From: a virus
Direction: 5' to 3' (one strand)
DNA: 64,000 bases
IMG/VR virus record: IMGVR_UViG_3300037200_000120
Location: 34,893 to 98,892 of that record
Shown here piece by piece: positions 18,872 to 27,705 of the stretch. The notes beneath the pieces are model-generated. The model searched no databases. It had not been told where the DNA came from and saw only the letters and a program-made list of their open reading frames with translations. The position numbers and the translations under genes were made by a program. Numbering within the stretch: position 1 is the first letter of the stretch; each line of letters opens with the position of its first letter.

Positions 18872-20550
18872 CAGACTTCTTCGATGTCGGCCGTGGCATA
18901 CGCCGCGATGAATGTCCTGGGAACCGGATCAGACACCACGATCCTAAACCGCCAGTCCCGAGCCGCGCCCAACTTCTTCCAGATCAGGCGCGTCGCATAG
19001 GCCCCGGTCTTCCCCAAACTCATCCAGAGTTGCCTGATGCCATAGGTTCTGCCTTGATCCTTGGAAATCATCAGCATGATTTGAGGGTCCGAGCCCTGCC
19101 CGGTCTGTGGCGCGTCGCCGACTTGCATGTTCAGTTCGAGTTTGGAGATGAAGACCCGCTTCCGGTCTTTGTGAACCGGGGGCGAATCGGCAAACCCGAT
19201 CATCGGCGATCCGAACTCGGTGTAAACCGAGTCGGAGAGGTAGCCGATCTGGCCGGATTGAGAATCCCCGATCAGGGTTTGATTGTTGAACACGACCGAA
19301 CAGTTGCCGCGCCACGCCCCGTCGAACGGCGTCGCGGCGACATACGATGTCCGCTCATGCCAGAGGCTGGTCGCGATGTCCAGTTCCCACGTCGCGTTGT
19401 TGCTGGGAAATTGCACTGCGACGAACTTGTGGCCGTTGAACGTGTAGGAGAACGCATAGGCATCTCCCGTGTTGGCATATTTCTGCCACGCGCCTTCGAT
19501 AGCGTGCGTGCTCATGCGCCTGAGTAAGACGCCGTCGAGGCGGTAGAACACCAGATCGTTGCCGAGAAAGAAAACCCCGTTGTCTTCCTTGACGATCGCC
19601 AGCGCAGCCGCGCAACCACGCTCGATCGTCGCCCCGTCATACCGGGAGAACGGATCGTTGTTCGCCCCGGTATCGTACCAGGTCTCGATCGTCTTCTGTT
19701 TGAAGATCAGAAGATTTTCTTGCTGGTTTACCGTCGCGAGAACGTAACTGGAATCGACGGAGGCCTCGTTGTAATCCAGCGCCGTATAAGTGGTTCCATC
19801 ATTATTGTTGGAGTAAACCCACTGGTTTGTTCCGGTGACGTCGTTGGTAAAATAGGTATCGAAGAATGTCGTCGTGGCTGCATCAGCGAAATTAGGGATC
19901 TGAGAAAACCCGACCGGAGGGCCAGTAAATGTCAGGTTGAAACTGGCCCCAGAACCGACGCCGGTGGTCGCCGCCTGTTCGGCTGGATTTGTGGGTTCGG
20001 TTCCATATTGGCCCGGCGAGTAGATCGTGAACGAAGCCGCAGCCGAGCCGCTGAGTGTGGCGACTTCGAGGATCGCCGGGTTCGTATAGGTTCCCCCGGC
20101 GACCGTGATCTGATCGCCGATCGCATAGTCCGAGCCGGAAGACCCGCCGACCGGCGTCGCGGCCGAGACATTGAACACGGAAGTCGGAGCATAGATCCAA
20201 CCGGCGACGCCGTTGACGATCTGGACTTGCGTTCCGTTGTTGGCCATCGAAACCGGGCCGAACCCGGCGATGCCAGAGCCCAACTCCGTCACCGTGTCGG
20301 CGACGGTCACGCTGTAGAGCGACTGTCCCGACACGAGGTAGAGGACGTTGTTCATGACGCTGAAGCCGCGGATCGGGCCGTTGCCCACCGTGACCAAAGT
20401 AATGATCCCAGGAGAGGCAATCACAGCGATGTCGGTTTTGGCGTCAGGCGGCTCTTTCTCGGCGTAGAGATTGACACAGCGTTGCGAGGATACCGGGAGG
20501 GAGTCGAGTTTGTACGATTGTGTCGACCATTGGATACGGAGCGGTTCCAT
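18871..20550 (-). CDS. Packaged DNA stabilization/tail hub protein (P22 gp10-like)
   Basis: SQRCVNLY, GPIRG, IERGCAA, TWELDIATSLWHER, SKDQGRTYG...LGKTGAY motifs. Confidence 0.85.
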   Translation of the reverse strand: MEPLRIQWSTQSYKLDSLPVSSQRCVNLYAEKEPPDAKTDIAVIASPGIITLVTVGNGPIRGFSVMNNVLYLVSGQSLYSVTVADTVTELGSGIAGFGPVSMANNGTQVQIVNGVAGWIYAPTSVFNVSAATPVGGSSGSDYAIGDQITVAGGTYTNPAILEVATLSGSAAASFTIYSPGQYGTEPTNPAEQAATTGVGSGASFNLTFTGPPVGFSQIPNFADAATTTFFDTYFTNDVTGTNQWVYSNNNDGTTYTALDYNEASVDSSYVLATVNQQENLLIFKQKTIETWYDTGANNDPFSRYDGATIERGCAAALAIVKEDNGVFFLGNDLVFYRLDGVLLRRMSTHAIEGAWQKYANTGDAYAFSYTFNGHKFVAVQFPSNNATWELDIATSLWHERTSYVAATPFDGAWRGNCSVVFNNQTLIGDSQSGQIGYLSDSVYTEFGSPMIGFADSPPVHKDRKRVFISKLELNMQVGDAPQTGQGSDPQIMLMISKDQGRTYGIRQLWMSLGKTGAYATRLIWKKLGAARDWRFRIVVSDPVPRTFIAAYATADIEEV

Positions 20551-20630
20551 GGGCTAAAAAATCGCCCACACCTGTTGATTGGTGTTGCATCTCATATTAT
20601 ATACACTCCCTCAATCGAGGTGGATCATTC

Positions 20631-21179
20631 ATGGAAGAAATATGGAAACCCGTCACTGGCTTTGAATTAGACTACGAAGTTTCTAACCTTGGCCGCGTAA
20701 AGCGCATCAGCCCGAACCGGGCTGGAAATACAAGGTTCGTCGGGCACATCATAAAACCAATGATGAGGACGCGCGGTTACCTCGGAATCTGTCTATGGAA
20801 AGATAGGAAGCCACACTCCAAACTTATCCATCGTATCGTTATGGAAACATTCGTTGGTCCGAGAGGGAACAACACGACGAACCACAAAAACGGAATAAAA
20901 ATAGATAATATGCTAGATAACTTGGAATACGTGACTCACTCCGAAAACATACAGCACGCATTGAACGTGCTTAAATCATTCAGACCAAGAAGTGGTGAAA
21001 CTCATCATCGCGCGACGATATCTGATGTTGACATGATCAGTATATGCAACAGACTCGACGCTGGAGAACGGCCCGGACCCATCGCTTCAGAATTTGGAGT
21101 AGCATACGGAACCATACGCGATTTCAGAGATCGAAATGGGAGATCAAAAAACGTTACGAAGAAATCATCCGCGCCCTGA
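20631..21179 (+). CDS. NUMOD4-HNH homing endonuclease (free-standing, antisense to structural operon)
   Basis: EIWKPVTGFELDYEVSNLGRVK (NUMOD4); IHRIVMETF...NHKNGIKIDNMLDNLEYVTHSENIQHA (HNH); AT-rich. Confidence 0.9.
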   Translation: MEEIWKPVTGFELDYEVSNLGRVKRISPNRAGNTRFVGHIIKPMMRTRGYLGICLWKDRKPHSKLIHRIVMETFVGPRGNNTTNHKNGIKIDNMLDNLEYVTHSENIQHALNVLKSFRPRSGETHHRATISDVDMISICNRLDAGERPGPIASEFGVAYGTIRDFRDRNGRSKNVTKKSSAP

Positions 21180-23268: not shown

Positions 23269-24687
23269 TTACGAGACCGTCACGCCTTCGGCGAGCGGCC
23301 GATAGCGGATGTACGGCTTCCAAGTGCCGGTCACGGTCGGGCCCGAACCAACAACGATGTTGATAGTTCCCGCCGGCGCCATGATCGTGCCTGGATTGGC
23401 AATCAAATTGGGACCGTTGGCATTTAGCAGCGCCGCCGTGGCTAGCGCCGTGCCGGCCAGGGTAATGGAGGCGCCCGCTGCGGAGCTAGCCACAGAGGCG
23501 GAAGCCGCGCTGATGGTCTGCGTGCTTCCCGTCGTCGGGATCACTTCGAACTGCACCGTCGCCGCCGTCGAATCGCCGCCGACCGCGCAAATCAGGAACA
23601 GCGCCTCAATCAGAATTGGGCCACCGGCCACGGTGAACAGCGCGGCACCCGTGGTGAGCAGAATCGCCGCTTTAGTGATGGTCTTGGGCTGCAAGTCGAC
23701 GACGCCTTGGAGCAGCGCGTCGATCGAGGCCGTAGCGCTCGGCAGATAGACCGCAGCATCGGTCTTGTTGCCGATGACGTCACGCTCGAGGACGTTGGCC
23801 GACGAGTTCTGCGCCGGCACGGCAAAAGTCGCCGCCGAAGGGAGCCCAGCCGGGGTGACAGCGGAGCCGCCCTGGAAAGCCACGCCACCGATTCCATCAT
23901 ACCCGCTGACGAACCATGTCGAGCCGCCGACAGTATCGACCACGTTCTTGGTAATGGCGGTATTGTAGTTGTAGAAATAGCCGCTGACCTGAACGTCCAC
24001 GCAGGCGGTCGTGGCGAAATCGACGACCGCGGTCGACCAGGCGCCGTAGGCATTGACGACGATATCGGCATTGACGACGCCGACCAATTTGACCATCGTG
24101 ACGCCGATGGTCGAGGCTGTGAACCCTTGATGGGTGAGGTTGAGCGTGAGATTCGACGCCGCCGCAGTCGTGATGACGTCCGTCACCGCCCCAACCGTCG
24201 ACGAAACGTCCTGGACCAGCGCCGAGATATTGACGCCAGCGGCCTGAATCGCGAAGATCGTCGCCAGCGAGGCGATGTTGGCGACGAAGACGGGGAGCGC
24301 GCCGGGAGCGCCGCCGATAAAAGTATTCGCCCCCGTGATCAGAATGGTTGCGGTAGTCGCTGTTCCCAGCGTGAATGTCGCCGCCTCGGCGCCGACGCCT
24401 AGATTCCAGAAGGTCAGACCCGCTTTGCTGATCGTGAGGCCGCCGGCCGCGCTGATCGTCTCCGCATGCCCCGCCATCCAGACGATGACGTCGCCGGGGC
24501 TCGCCAGCGTGATCGCGCGCTGCGTCGTCTTGAGCGGCTGCGCGAACGAACCCGCGTTGCCGTCGACGCCCGTCGCCGAATTGACGAACCAGACCGAACC
24601 GGAAGTCGGAGGAATCCCCGCCGTTCCCATGGTAGGAACGCCGAACGAGGTGACGCCGAAAGGAAAATTGGTATAACCCATTGTCAT
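23269..24687 (-). CDS. Virion structural/decoration protein
   Basis: TNFPFGVTSFGVP N-terminus; VWFVNS...GNAGSFAQPLKT...GDVI beta-helix-like start; follows capsid gene. Confidence 0.6.
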   Translation of the reverse strand: MTMGYTNFPFGVTSFGVPTMGTAGIPPTSGSVWFVNSATGVDGNAGSFAQPLKTTQRAITLASPGDVIVWMAGHAETISAAGGLTISKAGLTFWNLGVGAEAATFTLGTATTATILITGANTFIGGAPGALPVFVANIASLATIFAIQAAGVNISALVQDVSSTVGAVTDVITTAAASNLTLNLTHQGFTASTIGVTMVKLVGVVNADIVVNAYGAWSTAVVDFATTACVDVQVSGYFYNYNTAITKNVVDTVGGSTWFVSGYDGIGGVAFQGGSAVTPAGLPSAATFAVPAQNSSANVLERDVIGNKTDAAVYLPSATASIDALLQGVVDLQPKTITKAAILLTTGAALFTVAGGPILIEALFLICAVGGDSTAATVQFEVIPTTGSTQTISAASASVASSAAGASITLAGTALATAALLNANGPNLIANPGTIMAPAGTINIVVGSGPTVTGTWKPYIRYRPLAEGVTVS

Positions 24688-24795
24688 GACTCCGAGAGTG
24701 CCCGGCGTGATTCGAACCGCCGCTTACCCGACCAGGGACACAGAGAGGATTGCGCTACGCGCCGCTGACGCCGGGTTTTGAGCCTTCGGGAGGGC

Positions 24796-25506
24796 TTAGA
24801 GCTTGTGCTTCGCTAGATAGGCGATGGCGCGTTGGAGAATGGCCTGATCGTCTCGACCGTAGCCGAGCATTCGATTGCAGCGGACGCAAAGGAGACCGCG
24901 AACCTTGCCGGTGTCGTGATCGTGGTCTACGGACAACTCTTGGACTACTTTCGTCCTCGAGTTGATGAAACTCTCAGGATTGCCGCATATGTCGCAAACA
25001 TACCCTTGAGCTTTCGCCAGGGCGGCATATTCCGTCACGTCGATGCCGAACTTTTTCTTCAGCGTCCAATTGCGGACGTAATCGGCACGCTCTTGCGGCG
25101 TGAAGTAGTCCTTGACGGGAACCTCAGGCGGCGGCAACCAGAACAGATTGTCTTTCACCCACGGGCCGGTAGGATCGATCAGCCTGAGAACATGCTTTGG
25201 GCCTGGACGCTCCCCGACATCGGCGAGGAAGGCGTCAAACCAGCGCCAGGAGGCCGGATAGTTGCCGGCCCCTAAGCGCAGCCTCGTATTTTTCCAGAGC
25301 GGCTTTAACGGGTGACTGTCCCGCGCGTAATGGTGCGAGCAAAGCTTCTTGGCGAAAACGATTTCCGTGCATCCCTCGATATCGCACGTTCTCGTCAATT
25401 CCGAGTATTCAGACAACGTACCGCTGGTGCGCTCGCTTTCGTAGCACCCAGTGCATAATCCGCGCCCTTGGTTGCGCTTATCTCTACCGCATTTCCTGCA
25501 TATCAT
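24796..25506 (-). CDS. Free-standing homing endonuclease, endonuclease VII family
   Basis: C-terminal KKFGI...Q...CDICG...LSVDHDHDTGKVRGLLCVRCNRMLG = Endonuclease_7 motif; N-terminal Cys-rich zinc motifs; start ATG 25506 inferred. Confidence 0.85.
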   Translation of the reverse strand: MICRKCGRDKRNQGRGLCTGCYESERTSGTLSEYSELTRTCDIEGCTEIVFAKKLCSHHYARDSHPLKPLWKNTRLRLGAGNYPASWRWFDAFLADVGERPGPKHVLRLIDPTGPWVKDNLFWLPPPEVPVKDYFTPQERADYVRNWTLKKKFGIDVTEYAALAKAQGYVCDICGNPESFINSRTKVVQELSVDHDHDTGKVRGLLCVRCNRMLGYGRDDQAILQRAIAYLAKHKL

Positions 25507-25587
25507 CCGGTTACGGCCATGGTAGGCCCCTCTGTTGAAGGAAGCCAACCATGTACCTTTTTGTTGACGACCAATCAAGATCAATCG

Positions 25588-27705
25588 TCAGACGCCAGGC
25601 CATTATTTCACCCTCGGTCGCTATCCCGAAGATCGTCCACTGAGGACTGCTGAACGTTTCCGCTCAGAGAAGACCATATCATGATCTCTCGAAAGAGACC
25701 CTGCGCACTTCCCGCCGCTTGGCGGTACTCCCCGAAGGGATGGCCGTTGAACCTTCCGCTCATTGAGCGGCTCGGCTGCTGATTGTCCAATCTAGTTGCT
25801 TTTCAAACTATCGCGCCCGCCGTTGCCGGCCACGCTGTAGTGAACTAGCTCTAAGGATGTTCCAGCAATTCACGCAGTTATTCGACAGTAGTCGCCTACT
25901 GAAGGACCCAATATGTGGCGTCACATATAGTAACGAGTCCCGTAGATCCCGCGGAAGTCGCTCCAACCGCAAGAATAACGCTCGTAACAAGCCGCTTTGG
26001 CGTTCTTGGTATCGACGCTTATGTTCGATTTGGATAGCAACTCCAAACCCGTCCTAAGTGGACTGCCTCATATTACTATGAGGGCCAGACTATATCATCA
26101 TCCTGAATACTCAGGAGTGGGGCGCTTCGGCTCGCTTGAGCCTACGATCTCGCGATCTAGTCGTTGCACCTTCCGTCTCTCGACGGCTTGGCTCAGGATT
26201 GTCCCCGGCACCACCCGGTAGGAGATTCCCTGAGTTCACCCCATTCTTCGATGCGAGTCACCCCGCAAAGGACCTAATTCCAAAGAATTGAGTCGTTGTC
26301 CTGATCGCTAACTATTCGAAATGAATCGCTAATTCATCCCCGGCTTGCGCCTGCTGCACGTTTCCGCGCAGAGTGGACTATATCTTCATCTATTCAATAC
26401 TGAATAGAGCTAGGAACTTCGGCCCGCTTGGGCCTACGGTCTCGCGACCTAGTCTCTGAACCTTCATCACGATATTACATGATGCTTGGCTGCTGATTGC
26501 CCAATCCTGCAAATTTTCAAACCGTCACGCTCGCCGTTACCAGCCACGTTGTGGTTTTGCAGGCTCTAAGGGTGTTCCAGCAATTCACCTAGTTTAGACA
26601 GCTCCAATCATTAAAGCTGATGCCCTCGCGCTCGTACCACATCATCCCGCGCGGGATATTCGTCCTGATAAACCAGGCGGTCGCGCTGGAGAAATAGTGG
26701 CTGGCGAAGATCCCCTTCGGGAAAGCTCCCATGGCGCGCATCACGTTGATGTTGTTGTTCGCCGTGTCGCTCTGAAGCACGCTCTTGTAGATGCGGTTAG
26801 CTTCGAAGATGAGCTGATAGGGGATATGGAGGGACTGAGGAAGCGCGGAGATTTTCAGCCCGCGCGAATTGACCGTGAGGCCGACCTGGATCAGCAGATC
26901 CTCGATTGCGGTTTCGGACAAGTCCGCCGCCGTCGTGAGGAGATTCGACTGAGAGCCGCCGACAGTCGGATGCGCATTGTTGATCATGCACGTTCCGTCG
27001 CCGCCCGTATAGGCCGTGTTGAATGCACGGTTGTAGACGTTGGCCGCGATGTTTTCCTTGGTCTGCCGCATCGAGAACGCCAATTGCTGGGCGCGACGCT
27101 TGCTGACCACTTCGTAGAGATCGTCTTTCAACTCTTCGTACGTGACGATGTAGCCGAGAGCATAGGCGACGTTCGTATAGCGAGTGACCGAACCCTGGGT
27201 TTCGGTGTCGTACACGATCGAAGTGCCTTCGTTCTTGACCGGCGCCAAGCCGAAGCCGGTGATTTCGACCTCTTCTTCGTACGCCTTGTCTGAGGTGTCC
27301 TGCTCGAACAGATCCGACCATTCGGAAACGTGTTCGTCGTAGGAACGCCCCCACCAAGCCGCGATTCCTGGCCAAAGGGCCTTCGCTTGTTTGTTCGACG
27401 CAATTCGCTAGATTGCGCCCGTCGCTCTAAACGCGACCGCTGCATATCGCTATGCAGGCCTGACTATCTCTTGCCCCTCAATTGATCGATAGGGGCCGCA
27501 CCATTTCGGCTCGCTTGAGCCTACGGCCTTTCGGCCTAGTCGATGAACCTTACGACGTGCTATGATCGTCGTCTTGGCTGCTGATTGTCCGATCGTCGGA
27601 ATCAGAACGAGCGGAGTTCCCGGCAATTAAATGCGATCCCATTGCGCATTACGGCGCAATGGCCCGAGTTTATGCAGGATGTGTGCCTGTAGTAATAACG
27701 GCCAT
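25588..27705 (-). CDS. Major capsid protein, spliced: exons 27705-27676, 27383-26614, 26307-26291, 26015-25936, 25599-25588 (302 aa)
   Basis: RBS AGGAGG + ATG 27705; joined exons give one open frame MAVITTGTHP|KALWPGIAAWWG...EREGISF|DQDNDF|DTKNAKAACYERYSCGWSDFRGIYGT|PGV* (both F codons span junctions); lies downstream of the scaffold gene. Confidence 0.9.
25600..25935 (-). mobile_element. Group I intron 4 in major capsid gene (336 nt, no ORF)
   Basis: P1 GGACU/GGUCC; AAUUGCUGGAA, AAUCAGCAG; covariant P7 GGCCA/UGGUC; GACGCCA pairs with exon 5 UGGCGUC; terminal G. Confidence 0.88.
26016..26290 (-). mobile_element. Group I intron 3 in major capsid gene (275 nt, no ORF)
   Basis: P1 GACU/GGUC; AACUCAGGGAA, AAUCCUGAG, GUGCAACGACUA, AUGAUAUAGUC; terminal G. 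Confidence 0.9.
26308..26613 (-). mobile_element. Group I intron 2 in major capsid gene (306 nt, no ORF)
   Basis: P1 CAGCUU/GAGCUG with U-G at the splice site; P10 GAUUG/CGAUC; AAUUGCUGGAA, AAUCAGCAG, GUUCAGAGACUA, AAGAUAUAGUC; terminal G. Confidence 0.92.
27384..27675 (-). mobile_element. Group I intron 1 in major capsid gene (292 nt, no ORF)
   Basis: Exon ends in U, intron ends in G; core motifs AAUUGCCGGGAA, AAUCAGCAG, GUUCAUCGACUA, AAGAGAUAGUC; two hairpins after the 5' strand of P7. Confidence 0.9.

Follow-up and report, generated by a model that had tools for sequence, protein, structure and literature searches.

An endonuclease VII-type gene directly behind the capsid gene

The DNA analysed here, hereafter the window, is a stretch of 64,000 nucleotides (nt) that forms the right-hand 64 kb of a virus record of 98,892 bp (IMG/VR record IMGVR_UViG_3300037200_000120), the completeness of which was estimated at ~95% with CheckV. 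On the minus strand of the window, a major capsid gene interrupted by four group I introns is followed directly by a gene for an endonuclease VII (Endo VII)-type nuclease, a candidate homing endonuclease whose relationship to the capsid gene and its introns is the subject of this report (Table 1). The frame at 24796-25587 (minus strand) is open between two stops, and the ATG at 25506 lies 81 nt beyond the capsid stop codon (TGA, 25590-25588). A search of 5.8 billion proteins returned ~30 full-length homologues with 43-56% identity to the nuclease, plus remoter ones. Because all ~30 share the M-x-C-x-x-C start found at this ATG, the true product is most likely the protein of 236 amino acids (aa) encoded by 24796-25506. 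The gene is the sole one of Endo VII type in the 98.9-kb record, and a megablast search with 12 kb of the sequence against GenBank phages gave no match.

The C-terminus of the protein corresponds to the Pfam family Endonuclease_7 (PF02945, E = 6e-22) and carries the catalytic motif CxxC...DHDH...R...CxxC-N (C171/C174, D194/H195/H197, R203, C207/C210 and N211), the residues of which, including all DHHRN positions, are invariant or nearly so among 33 homologues. Two Cys/His modules of the zinc type occupy the N-terminus, the first with invariant C3/C6/C18/C21 (CxxC...CxxC) and the second with invariant C41/C46/C56/H59 (C-x4-C-x9-C-x2-H), and residues 3-65 resemble the N-terminus of an HNH-endonuclease family in PHROG. 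The AlphaFold2 model has a mean predicted local distance difference test score of 89.5. In Foldseek searches, its last ~92 residues alone matched the folds of Hpy99I and T4 Endo VII, and the N-terminal and middle domains gave no match. The zinc modules together with the middle domain are presumed to be the sequence-specific DNA-binding part.

The closest characterized enzyme is F-CphI of cyanophage S-PM2, with 37% identity over ~98 residues (BLASTP against the S-PM2 record; F-CphI aa 51-142, E = 4e-18). Sequence matches in PDB comprised Hpy99I (E = 9e-6) and T4 Endo VII (1e7d; E = 0.29 over 28 residues). The DHHRN (F-CphI) family has been defined by the motif CX2C...DHDH...R...CX2C-N, and its analysis splits an endonuclease clade from a resolvase clade (PMC6083498). 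The window nuclease shares with this family the complete CX2-4C...D-H-D-H...R...CX2C-N motif, the C-terminal placement of that motif and the status of an optional gene between conserved genes. It is nearer to F-CphI and Hpy99I, of the endonuclease clade, than to T4 Endo VII, of the resolvase clade, as judged from pairwise matches rather than from the tree of the 313 sequences of PMC6083498. The layout of T4 Endo VII-type resolvases, namely an N-terminal core followed by a dimerisation domain and encoded by a core gene, is not that of the window nuclease.

Four introns without open reading frames in the capsid gene

Rfam recognized four group I introns on the same strand as the nuclease, between 25650 and 27681 (50.5-82 bits, cut-off 50), and no further group I intron in the rest of the genome. 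Exons were placed with the guidance of the uninterrupted capsid genes of MW202785 and of Alcaligenes phage QDWS535. The resulting model (30+770+17+80+12 nt) yields a 909-nt frame for a capsid protein of 302 aa, which aligns without gaps from end to end with the products of uninterrupted genes of relatives (94-96% identity). The introns, 275-336 nt long, are inserted at nt 30, 800, 817 and 897 of the coding sequence (CDS), so that three of them fall within the last 109 coding nt, and intron 4 is separated from the nuclease gene by a 12-nt exon plus 81 nt. Each intron is preceded by an exonic U and ends in G, its removal restores the frame, and none contains an open reading frame (ORF) of nuclease size. 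The four are paralogues, with a mean column identity of 61%. A preliminary description of this DNA, made from the sequence alone, had pointed to an Endo VII-motif nuclease with N-terminal zinc motifs ~80 nt past the capsid stop, to introns devoid of ORFs, to the crowding of three of the four in the last ~110 coding nt and to the likeness with F-CphI and its neighbour psbA; all of these were borne out. In both systems, an intron-bearing gene, a gap of ~70-80 nt and a nuclease follow one another on the same strand.

This peat phage was found at 100% identity in a second peat study (run X2), with the nuclease and with introns 2 and 3. The peat metatranscriptome X3 contains a 292-nt contig, with ~96% identity to the window, in which the 3' G of intron 2 (26308) is followed directly by position 26606 (intron nt 8); this contig was absent from two DNA runs. 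Circular permutation of this kind is characteristic of a circularized group I intron, here one that has lost its first 7 nt. RNA contigs in which exons are joined without an intron were not accepted as proof of splicing, because they are only 93-95% identical to the window and may stem from intron-less relatives. None of the RNA contigs of runs X3 and X7 lies on the nuclease gene, and they are uninformative on its expression.

Table 1. Features of the capsid and nuclease locus (window positions)
Feature	Coordinates	Strand	Evidence
Nuclease gene, 236 aa + stop	24796..25506	-	ORF; start from homologues; Pfam PF02945; PHROG endonuclease VII families; AlphaFold2
Catalytic beta-beta-alpha-Me / Endo VII domain, aa 149-232	24811..25062	-	Pfam match; invariant columns; F-CphI identity; Hpy99I and T4 Endo VII as best PDB matches
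Two N-terminal Cys/His (zinc-type) modules, aa 3-21 and aa 41-59	25330..25500	-	Invariant Cys/His columns; PHROG match
Leader, capsid stop to nuclease ATG	25507..25587	-	Two hairpins: 25565-25590 and 25515-25557
Capsid exon 5 (P-G-V-stop)	25588..25599	-	Conserved T-P-G-V/A-stop end of uninterrupted homologues
Group I intron 4, 336 nt, no ORF, CDS nt 897	25600..25935	-	RF00028, 52 bits; boundaries from homology
Capsid exon 4, 80 nt	25936..26015	-	blastn and tblastn to relatives
Group I intron 3, 275 nt, CDS nt 817	26016..26290	-	RF00028, 67.7 bits; L093 comparison
Capsid exon 3, 17 nt	26291..26307	-	Restores F-D-Q-D-N-D-F, invariant in relatives
Group I intron 2, 306 nt, CDS nt 800	26308..26613	-	RF00028, 82.1 bits; permuted RNA contig
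Capsid exon 2, 770 nt	26614..27383	-	Pfam Phage_capsid_4 (weak); homologues 52-96% identical
Group I intron 1, 292 nt, CDS nt 30	27384..27675	-	RF00028, 50.5 bits; boundaries from homology
Capsid exon 1 (MAVITTGTHP), AGGAGG before	27676..27705	-	Sequence; homologues

The nuclease is an optional gene with a fixed place

Capsid-based searches yielded 113 related loci (33 from IMG/VR and 80 from metagenomes; designated below by L numbers). Across the ~62 distinct lineages for which downstream DNA was available, the nuclease is present in 14, the window included, and absent from ~48, which corresponds to at least 11 changes of state on the capsid tree. Its homologues at the capsid loci are 31-51% identical to the window nuclease and always lie directly behind the capsid stop. 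Comparison of the window with L089 delimits the nuclease segment: 25587-24797 stands in place of a 65-nt spacer, and homology resumes exactly at the nuclease stop. Similarly, the nuclease segment of L093 takes the place of 80 nt in L091, a pair that we rejected as isogenic because its identity reached only 88% in the capsids and 72-77% in the flanks. In four relatives without the nuclease, the contigs of 37-58 kb are devoid of Endo VII genes throughout. A 9-nt likeness to exon 5 just past the nuclease stop was discarded as a copy of the target site, since it aligns with ordinary intergenic DNA of L089.

A search seeded with the nuclease itself led to the same neighbourhood. It retrieved 13 loci with full-length homologues (31-40% identity), in 11 of which a capsid gene from the same family as that of the window, and 35-53% identical to it, precedes the homologue at a distance of 10-120 nt. 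One of the remaining loci starts too near the nuclease to tell; in the other (L008:632-2580), a homologue 32% identical to the window nuclease is located 63 nt behind a P22-type coat gene (PF11651, E = 4e-37), a member of a capsid family different from that of the window. The gene downstream of the nuclease differs between loci; the capsid gene is therefore the constant partner. Because more than 20 loci pair a nuclease homologue with an uninterrupted capsid gene, the nuclease family, to judge by these arrangements, does not generally need introns for self-immunity.

In two nuclease-free loci, 32 nt from within the capsid gene (A-W-F-I-R-T-N region) are repeated just past the capsid stop (L091:4379-4410 and L092:2618-2649); the repeat could be what is left of a former insertion that was excised from this spot.

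Probable exchange of nuclease alleles together with the capsid 3' end

The nuclease tree comprises two deep clades, which are interspersed among close capsid relatives and conflict with the capsid tree. Turnover of alleles is most apparent in L099, L100 and L006. The DNA of these three loci is 90-97% identical over a stretch that comprises the capsid gene (96-99% in the capsid bodies) and more than 5 kb before it, but their nucleases are three alleles that are not alignable as DNA. Between the capsid genes of L099 and L100, nt 1-743 contain 7 differences and nt 744-909 contain 44 (~26% diverged), and homology stops at the stop codon. In the other pairs of this trio, the capsid bodies are 96% identical and the last 162 nt 73-82%. 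We read these breaks as conversion tracts that would move a nuclease allele together with the final ~165 nt of capsid sequence. The sites of window introns 2-4 (nt 800, 817 and 897) lie inside this ~165-nt tract.

Capsid introns among the relatives

Few relatives carry introns, at a minimum of seven sites across the capsid family (nt 30, 37, 45, 58, 800, 817 and 897), which cluster in the two most conserved ends of the gene. L093, L094 and L126 possess the nuclease as well as introns at nt 58 and nt 817, the latter occupying the same site as window intron 3 and being 71% identical to it. Further introns were found at nt 37 in L144, which has no nuclease in the 1.1 kb downstream, and at nt 58 in L123, where a different gene follows the capsid stop. 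Two capsid introns contain GIY-YIG genes of their own: that at nt 58 of L175 (L175:1-617), where another gene stands directly behind the capsid gene, and that at nt 45 of L185 (L185:248-1069; Pfam GIY-YIG and NUMOD3).

The preliminary description had put forward the co-occurrence of nuclease and introns among related genomes as a check. Introns at the 3' end occur exclusively in nuclease-bearing lineages (2/2; one-sided Fisher test, p = 0.048). Carriage of any intron is not associated with carriage of the nuclease (p = 0.13 or weaker), and 5'-end introns are present without the nuclease in L144 and L175.

L093 also has a 13-nt insert (L093:5706-5718) exactly at the site of the L144 intron, CDS nt 37. 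It brings a stop codon into the capsid frame, with a GTG just behind it at which translation could restart. The insert may be the scar of an imprecise intron loss, or an assembly error.

A structured leader precedes the nuclease

The hairpin at 25515-25557 in the leader buries a GAGGGG Shine-Dalgarno sequence together with the AUG of a five-codon upstream ORF (25503-25520), the stop of which overlaps the nuclease start (AUGA). The leader fold has a free energy of -33.1 kcal/mol (z = -3.1), and a hairpin over the ribosome-binding site or start of the nuclease was obtained at 8 of the 9 relatives' loci that were folded. Hairpins that hide ribosome-binding sites are known for the phage homing endonuclease genes I-TevI-III, segB and mobE (PMC2988022). 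A scan of 24600-25750 for sigma-70 promoters and terminators found none. The arrangement of the two overlapping frames leads us to conjecture that translation of the upstream ORF and of the nuclease may be coupled in the window.

A probable homing endonuclease that would carry bare introns with it

We consider it likely that the gene encodes a free-standing DHHRN homing endonuclease (Endo VII motif, F-CphI-like) that has its home directly behind the major capsid gene, and whose spread would convert the last ~165 nt of that gene. The observations that speak for this are the family membership, the intact catalytic residues, the optional and locus-fixed distribution, the turnover of alleles and the exchange tract; what we infer from them is that the enzyme cleaves at a specific site, where its target lies, in which direction transfer proceeds and how expression is regulated. 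The C-terminal beta-beta-alpha-Me site would cut, and the N-terminal zinc modules and middle domain would provide specific DNA binding. When phages with and without the nuclease infect the same cell, the enzyme would cleave the nuclease-free genome within or beside the conserved 3' end of the capsid gene. Repair of the break on the nuclease-bearing template would then bring in the nuclease gene and, with it, the final ~165 nt of capsid sequence. Being located inside this tract, the three introns without ORFs (nt 800, 817 and 897) would be passive passengers. Such hitch-hiking with the nuclease is plausible, and would represent trans or collaborative homing in a loose sense. Expression of the nuclease would depend on read-through from the capsid message and would be held down by the hairpin over the ribosome-binding site.

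Several points weigh against a homing endonuclease of this kind. The evidence for its mobility is comparative throughout. Identity drops towards the capsid 3' end in some nuclease-free pairs as well, if less steeply (96% vs 86% in L086/L087; 94% vs 80% in L148/L151), and the tract is therefore not tied solely to present-day carriers; in these pairs, the drop could reflect past visits of the nuclease or a general recombination hot spot. Relative divergence is elevated at both capsid ends, in pairs with and without the nuclease (3' end, p ~ 0.003; 5' end, p ~ 0.0003), which we take as a weak hint, given that the pairs are non-independent and one partner was used five times. No position of the capsid 3' end separates carriers from non-carriers, and this end of the gene therefore does not account for the escape of carriers from their own enzyme. 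Substitutions linked to the nuclease that might confer immunity were sought in the capsid 3' end and at the intron sites, but none was usable, the associated positions being scattered along the gene and confounded by phylogeny. The nuclease ATG of the window itself has no Shine-Dalgarno sequence. Finally, neither RuvC nor RusA was found in the genome, which concedes a small share of probability to a resolvase role.

The most serious competing explanation, which we regard as a genuine if minority possibility, is that two independent parasites coincide at this locus. The introns would have arrived through endonuclease genes of their own that were later lost, or by reverse splicing, the nuclease would home alone, and both would favour the conserved ends of an essential gene. 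The seven distinct intron sites in the capsid family fit this explanation, as do the introns without the nuclease in L144, L175 and probably L123, the intron-borne GIY-YIG genes of L175 and L185, the paralogy of the four window introns and the missing association between the nuclease and introns in general. It accounts poorly for the packing of three introns into the 109 nt nearest the nuclease and for the restriction of 3'-end introns to nuclease carriers. Moreover, even if introns and nuclease had arrived independently, the exchange tract would move them together.

The preliminary description had proposed collaborative homing in a strict form. According to this proposal, the nuclease cuts intron-less capsid alleles of co-infecting phages at a 3' intron site, one or more introns split the site and thereby protect the phage, and the pair spreads in the manner of psbA and F-CphI in S-PM2. 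The enzyme family and the layout are those of S-PM2 (PMC6083498), and introns 2-4 are located within the most conserved coding stretch (F-D-Q-D-N-D-F-D-T-K-N-A-K and G-T-P-G-V) as well as within the tract. Within the capsid clade of the window, intron 3 and the nuclease occur together (window and L093 type) or are jointly missing (L086-L092 types), and the window and L093 nucleases are nearest neighbours in the locus-based tree; the exclusive occurrence of 3'-end introns in nuclease carriers points the same way. Set against this are the more than 20 loci in which the nuclease accompanies an uninterrupted capsid gene, among them L006, which is nearly identical to the spliced window across sites 2-3. 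There are only two independent lineages with both introns and nuclease, and close linkage alone would produce their co-occurrence. A single recognition site could not account for three introns spread over 97 nt. In addition, the GIY-YIG genes within the capsid introns of relatives fit the loss or turnover of an intron-encoded endonuclease gene, which has been named as an alternative to collaborative homing (PMC10448857). What stands of the proposal is an F-CphI-like, free-standing mobile gene and a tract that covers introns 2-4; the uninterrupted capsid genes of most carriers and the 5' introns without a nuclease tell against the remainder, and in its strict form we judge it unlikely.

A more specific version, to which we attach rather little credence, is that the nuclease recognizes intact capsid sequence around nt 795-825 (F-D-Q-D-N-D-F-D-T), that introns 2 and 3, 17 nt apart, would each split this site, and that the locus would constitute a multi-intron collaborative-homing island. 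If so, a capsid-anchored Endo VII-type enzyme would drive ORF-less introns and be shielded by them, and the locus would be a natural intermediate in the evolution of a mobile intron out of a bare one with a free-standing endonuclease at its side.

Lastly, a function as the phage's Holliday-junction resolvase or debranching enzyme, which like T4 gp49 would clear branched DNA before packaging and would owe its place in the late operon to timing, appears very improbable in view of the different domain order, the weak likeness to T4 Endo VII and the optional status of the gene: it would explain why this is the only Endo VII-type gene of a genome devoid of recognizable RuvC and RusA, why it sits within a late structural operon and why its fold is related to T4 Endo VII, but the motif is C-terminal with no counterpart of the T4 dimerisation part, the match to the T4 enzyme falls far behind that to F-CphI, roughly three in four related lineages lack the gene, as do the entire contigs of four relatives, its alleles are swapped between near-identical phages, and its extra zinc modules are common to HNH homing-type enzymes.

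Comparison with known systems

The nearest parallel to the likely homing endonuclease described here is F-CphI (PMC6083498), which has the same C-terminal Endo VII motif with conserved D, H, H, R and N and is likewise free-standing on the same strand, 66-81 nt (the range over the two systems) behind a conserved gene with an ORF-less group I intron. F-CphI is shorter (142 aa versus 236 aa) and is without the two N-terminal zinc modules and the middle domain, and its neighbour psbA contains one intron, whereas the capsid gene contains four. Unlike in S-PM2, most of the nuclease-bearing relatives are intron-less, and the target and the protection by introns are conjectural here. In T4, mobE and the defunct I-TevIII intron similarly pair a free-standing endonuclease with an intron unable to move itself; co-conversion of flanking DNA passes the intron on, and a hairpin at the ribosome-binding site limits translation (PMC2790892, PMC2988022). 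However, MobE belongs to the HNH family and its gene resides inside the nrd genes, as opposed to an Endo VII-type gene behind the capsid gene with three introns in the tract.

The Endo VII-motif enzymes associated with DNA-polymerase introns of T7-like phages share the catalytic family, homing and the presence of group I introns in an essential gene (cited in PMC6083498 and PMC10448857). Those enzymes are encoded in the introns or beside the polymerase gene, whereas the present one lies outside the introns and accompanies capsid genes that span 35-95% identity. Homing-endonuclease islands of ICP1 and other phages also stand beside essential genes, including capsid genes, at sharp breaks of identity (PMC10448857), but belong to the T5orf172 and IPA-HNH families rather than to DHHRN, and the break in our case is located ~165 nt inside the capsid gene. 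T4 Endo VII (gp49), finally, has in common with the window nuclease the zinc-bound beta-beta-alpha-Me catalytic core, which in T4 is N-terminal, is followed by a dimerisation domain and is encoded by a core gene, and here is C-terminal and encoded by an optional gene.

Earlier work had thus already described the enzyme family, capsid introns, homing of the trans or collaborative kind and the placement of free-standing endonucleases next to essential genes (PMC6083498, PMC2790892, PMC10448857). New are a subfamily with twin zinc modules that has kept to capsid genes despite deep divergence, the mapping of a natural exchange tract and the three bare introns within that tract. Pairs of a free-standing endonuclease and an endonuclease-less intron number a handful, S-PM2 being the sole case with an Endo VII-type enzyme. 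The locus offers a second and richer one, with alleles that have or lack the nuclease, zero to four introns, at least seven intron sites, a measured tract and divergent nucleases at a fixed locus. It is suited to asking whether nucleases of this type mobilise bare introns, by what means carriers are spared from self-cleavage and what part homing endonucleases play in the mosaicism of an essential structural gene in uncultured phages of soil and peat. Were its specificity to be for conserved capsid sequence, the enzyme would also be a candidate weapon between co-infecting phages (compare PMC11620839).

Other features of the window and its relatives

A second free-standing gene of homing type is located at 20520-21179 on the plus strand. 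Its product combines NUMOD4 and HNH_3 and corresponds to HNH endonuclease in PHROG, and the gene lies antisense in the minus-strand tail operon, as a clean insertion relative to L087-L090, where 6 nt stand in its place. Upstream of a gene for a 472-aa protein, a conserved intergenic element (24700-24760, minus strand) contains the T-arm-like core GGTTCGAATCA; ARAGORN found no transfer RNA, and the element is also present in L098 and L086.

The genome of the window measures 98.9 kb, as compared with ~60-65 kb for near-complete relatives that share its capsid module (for example, 64 kb at 97%). The flanks of the structural module are ~66-72% identical DNA between the window and relatives, and only the structural module seems to be common to these genomes.

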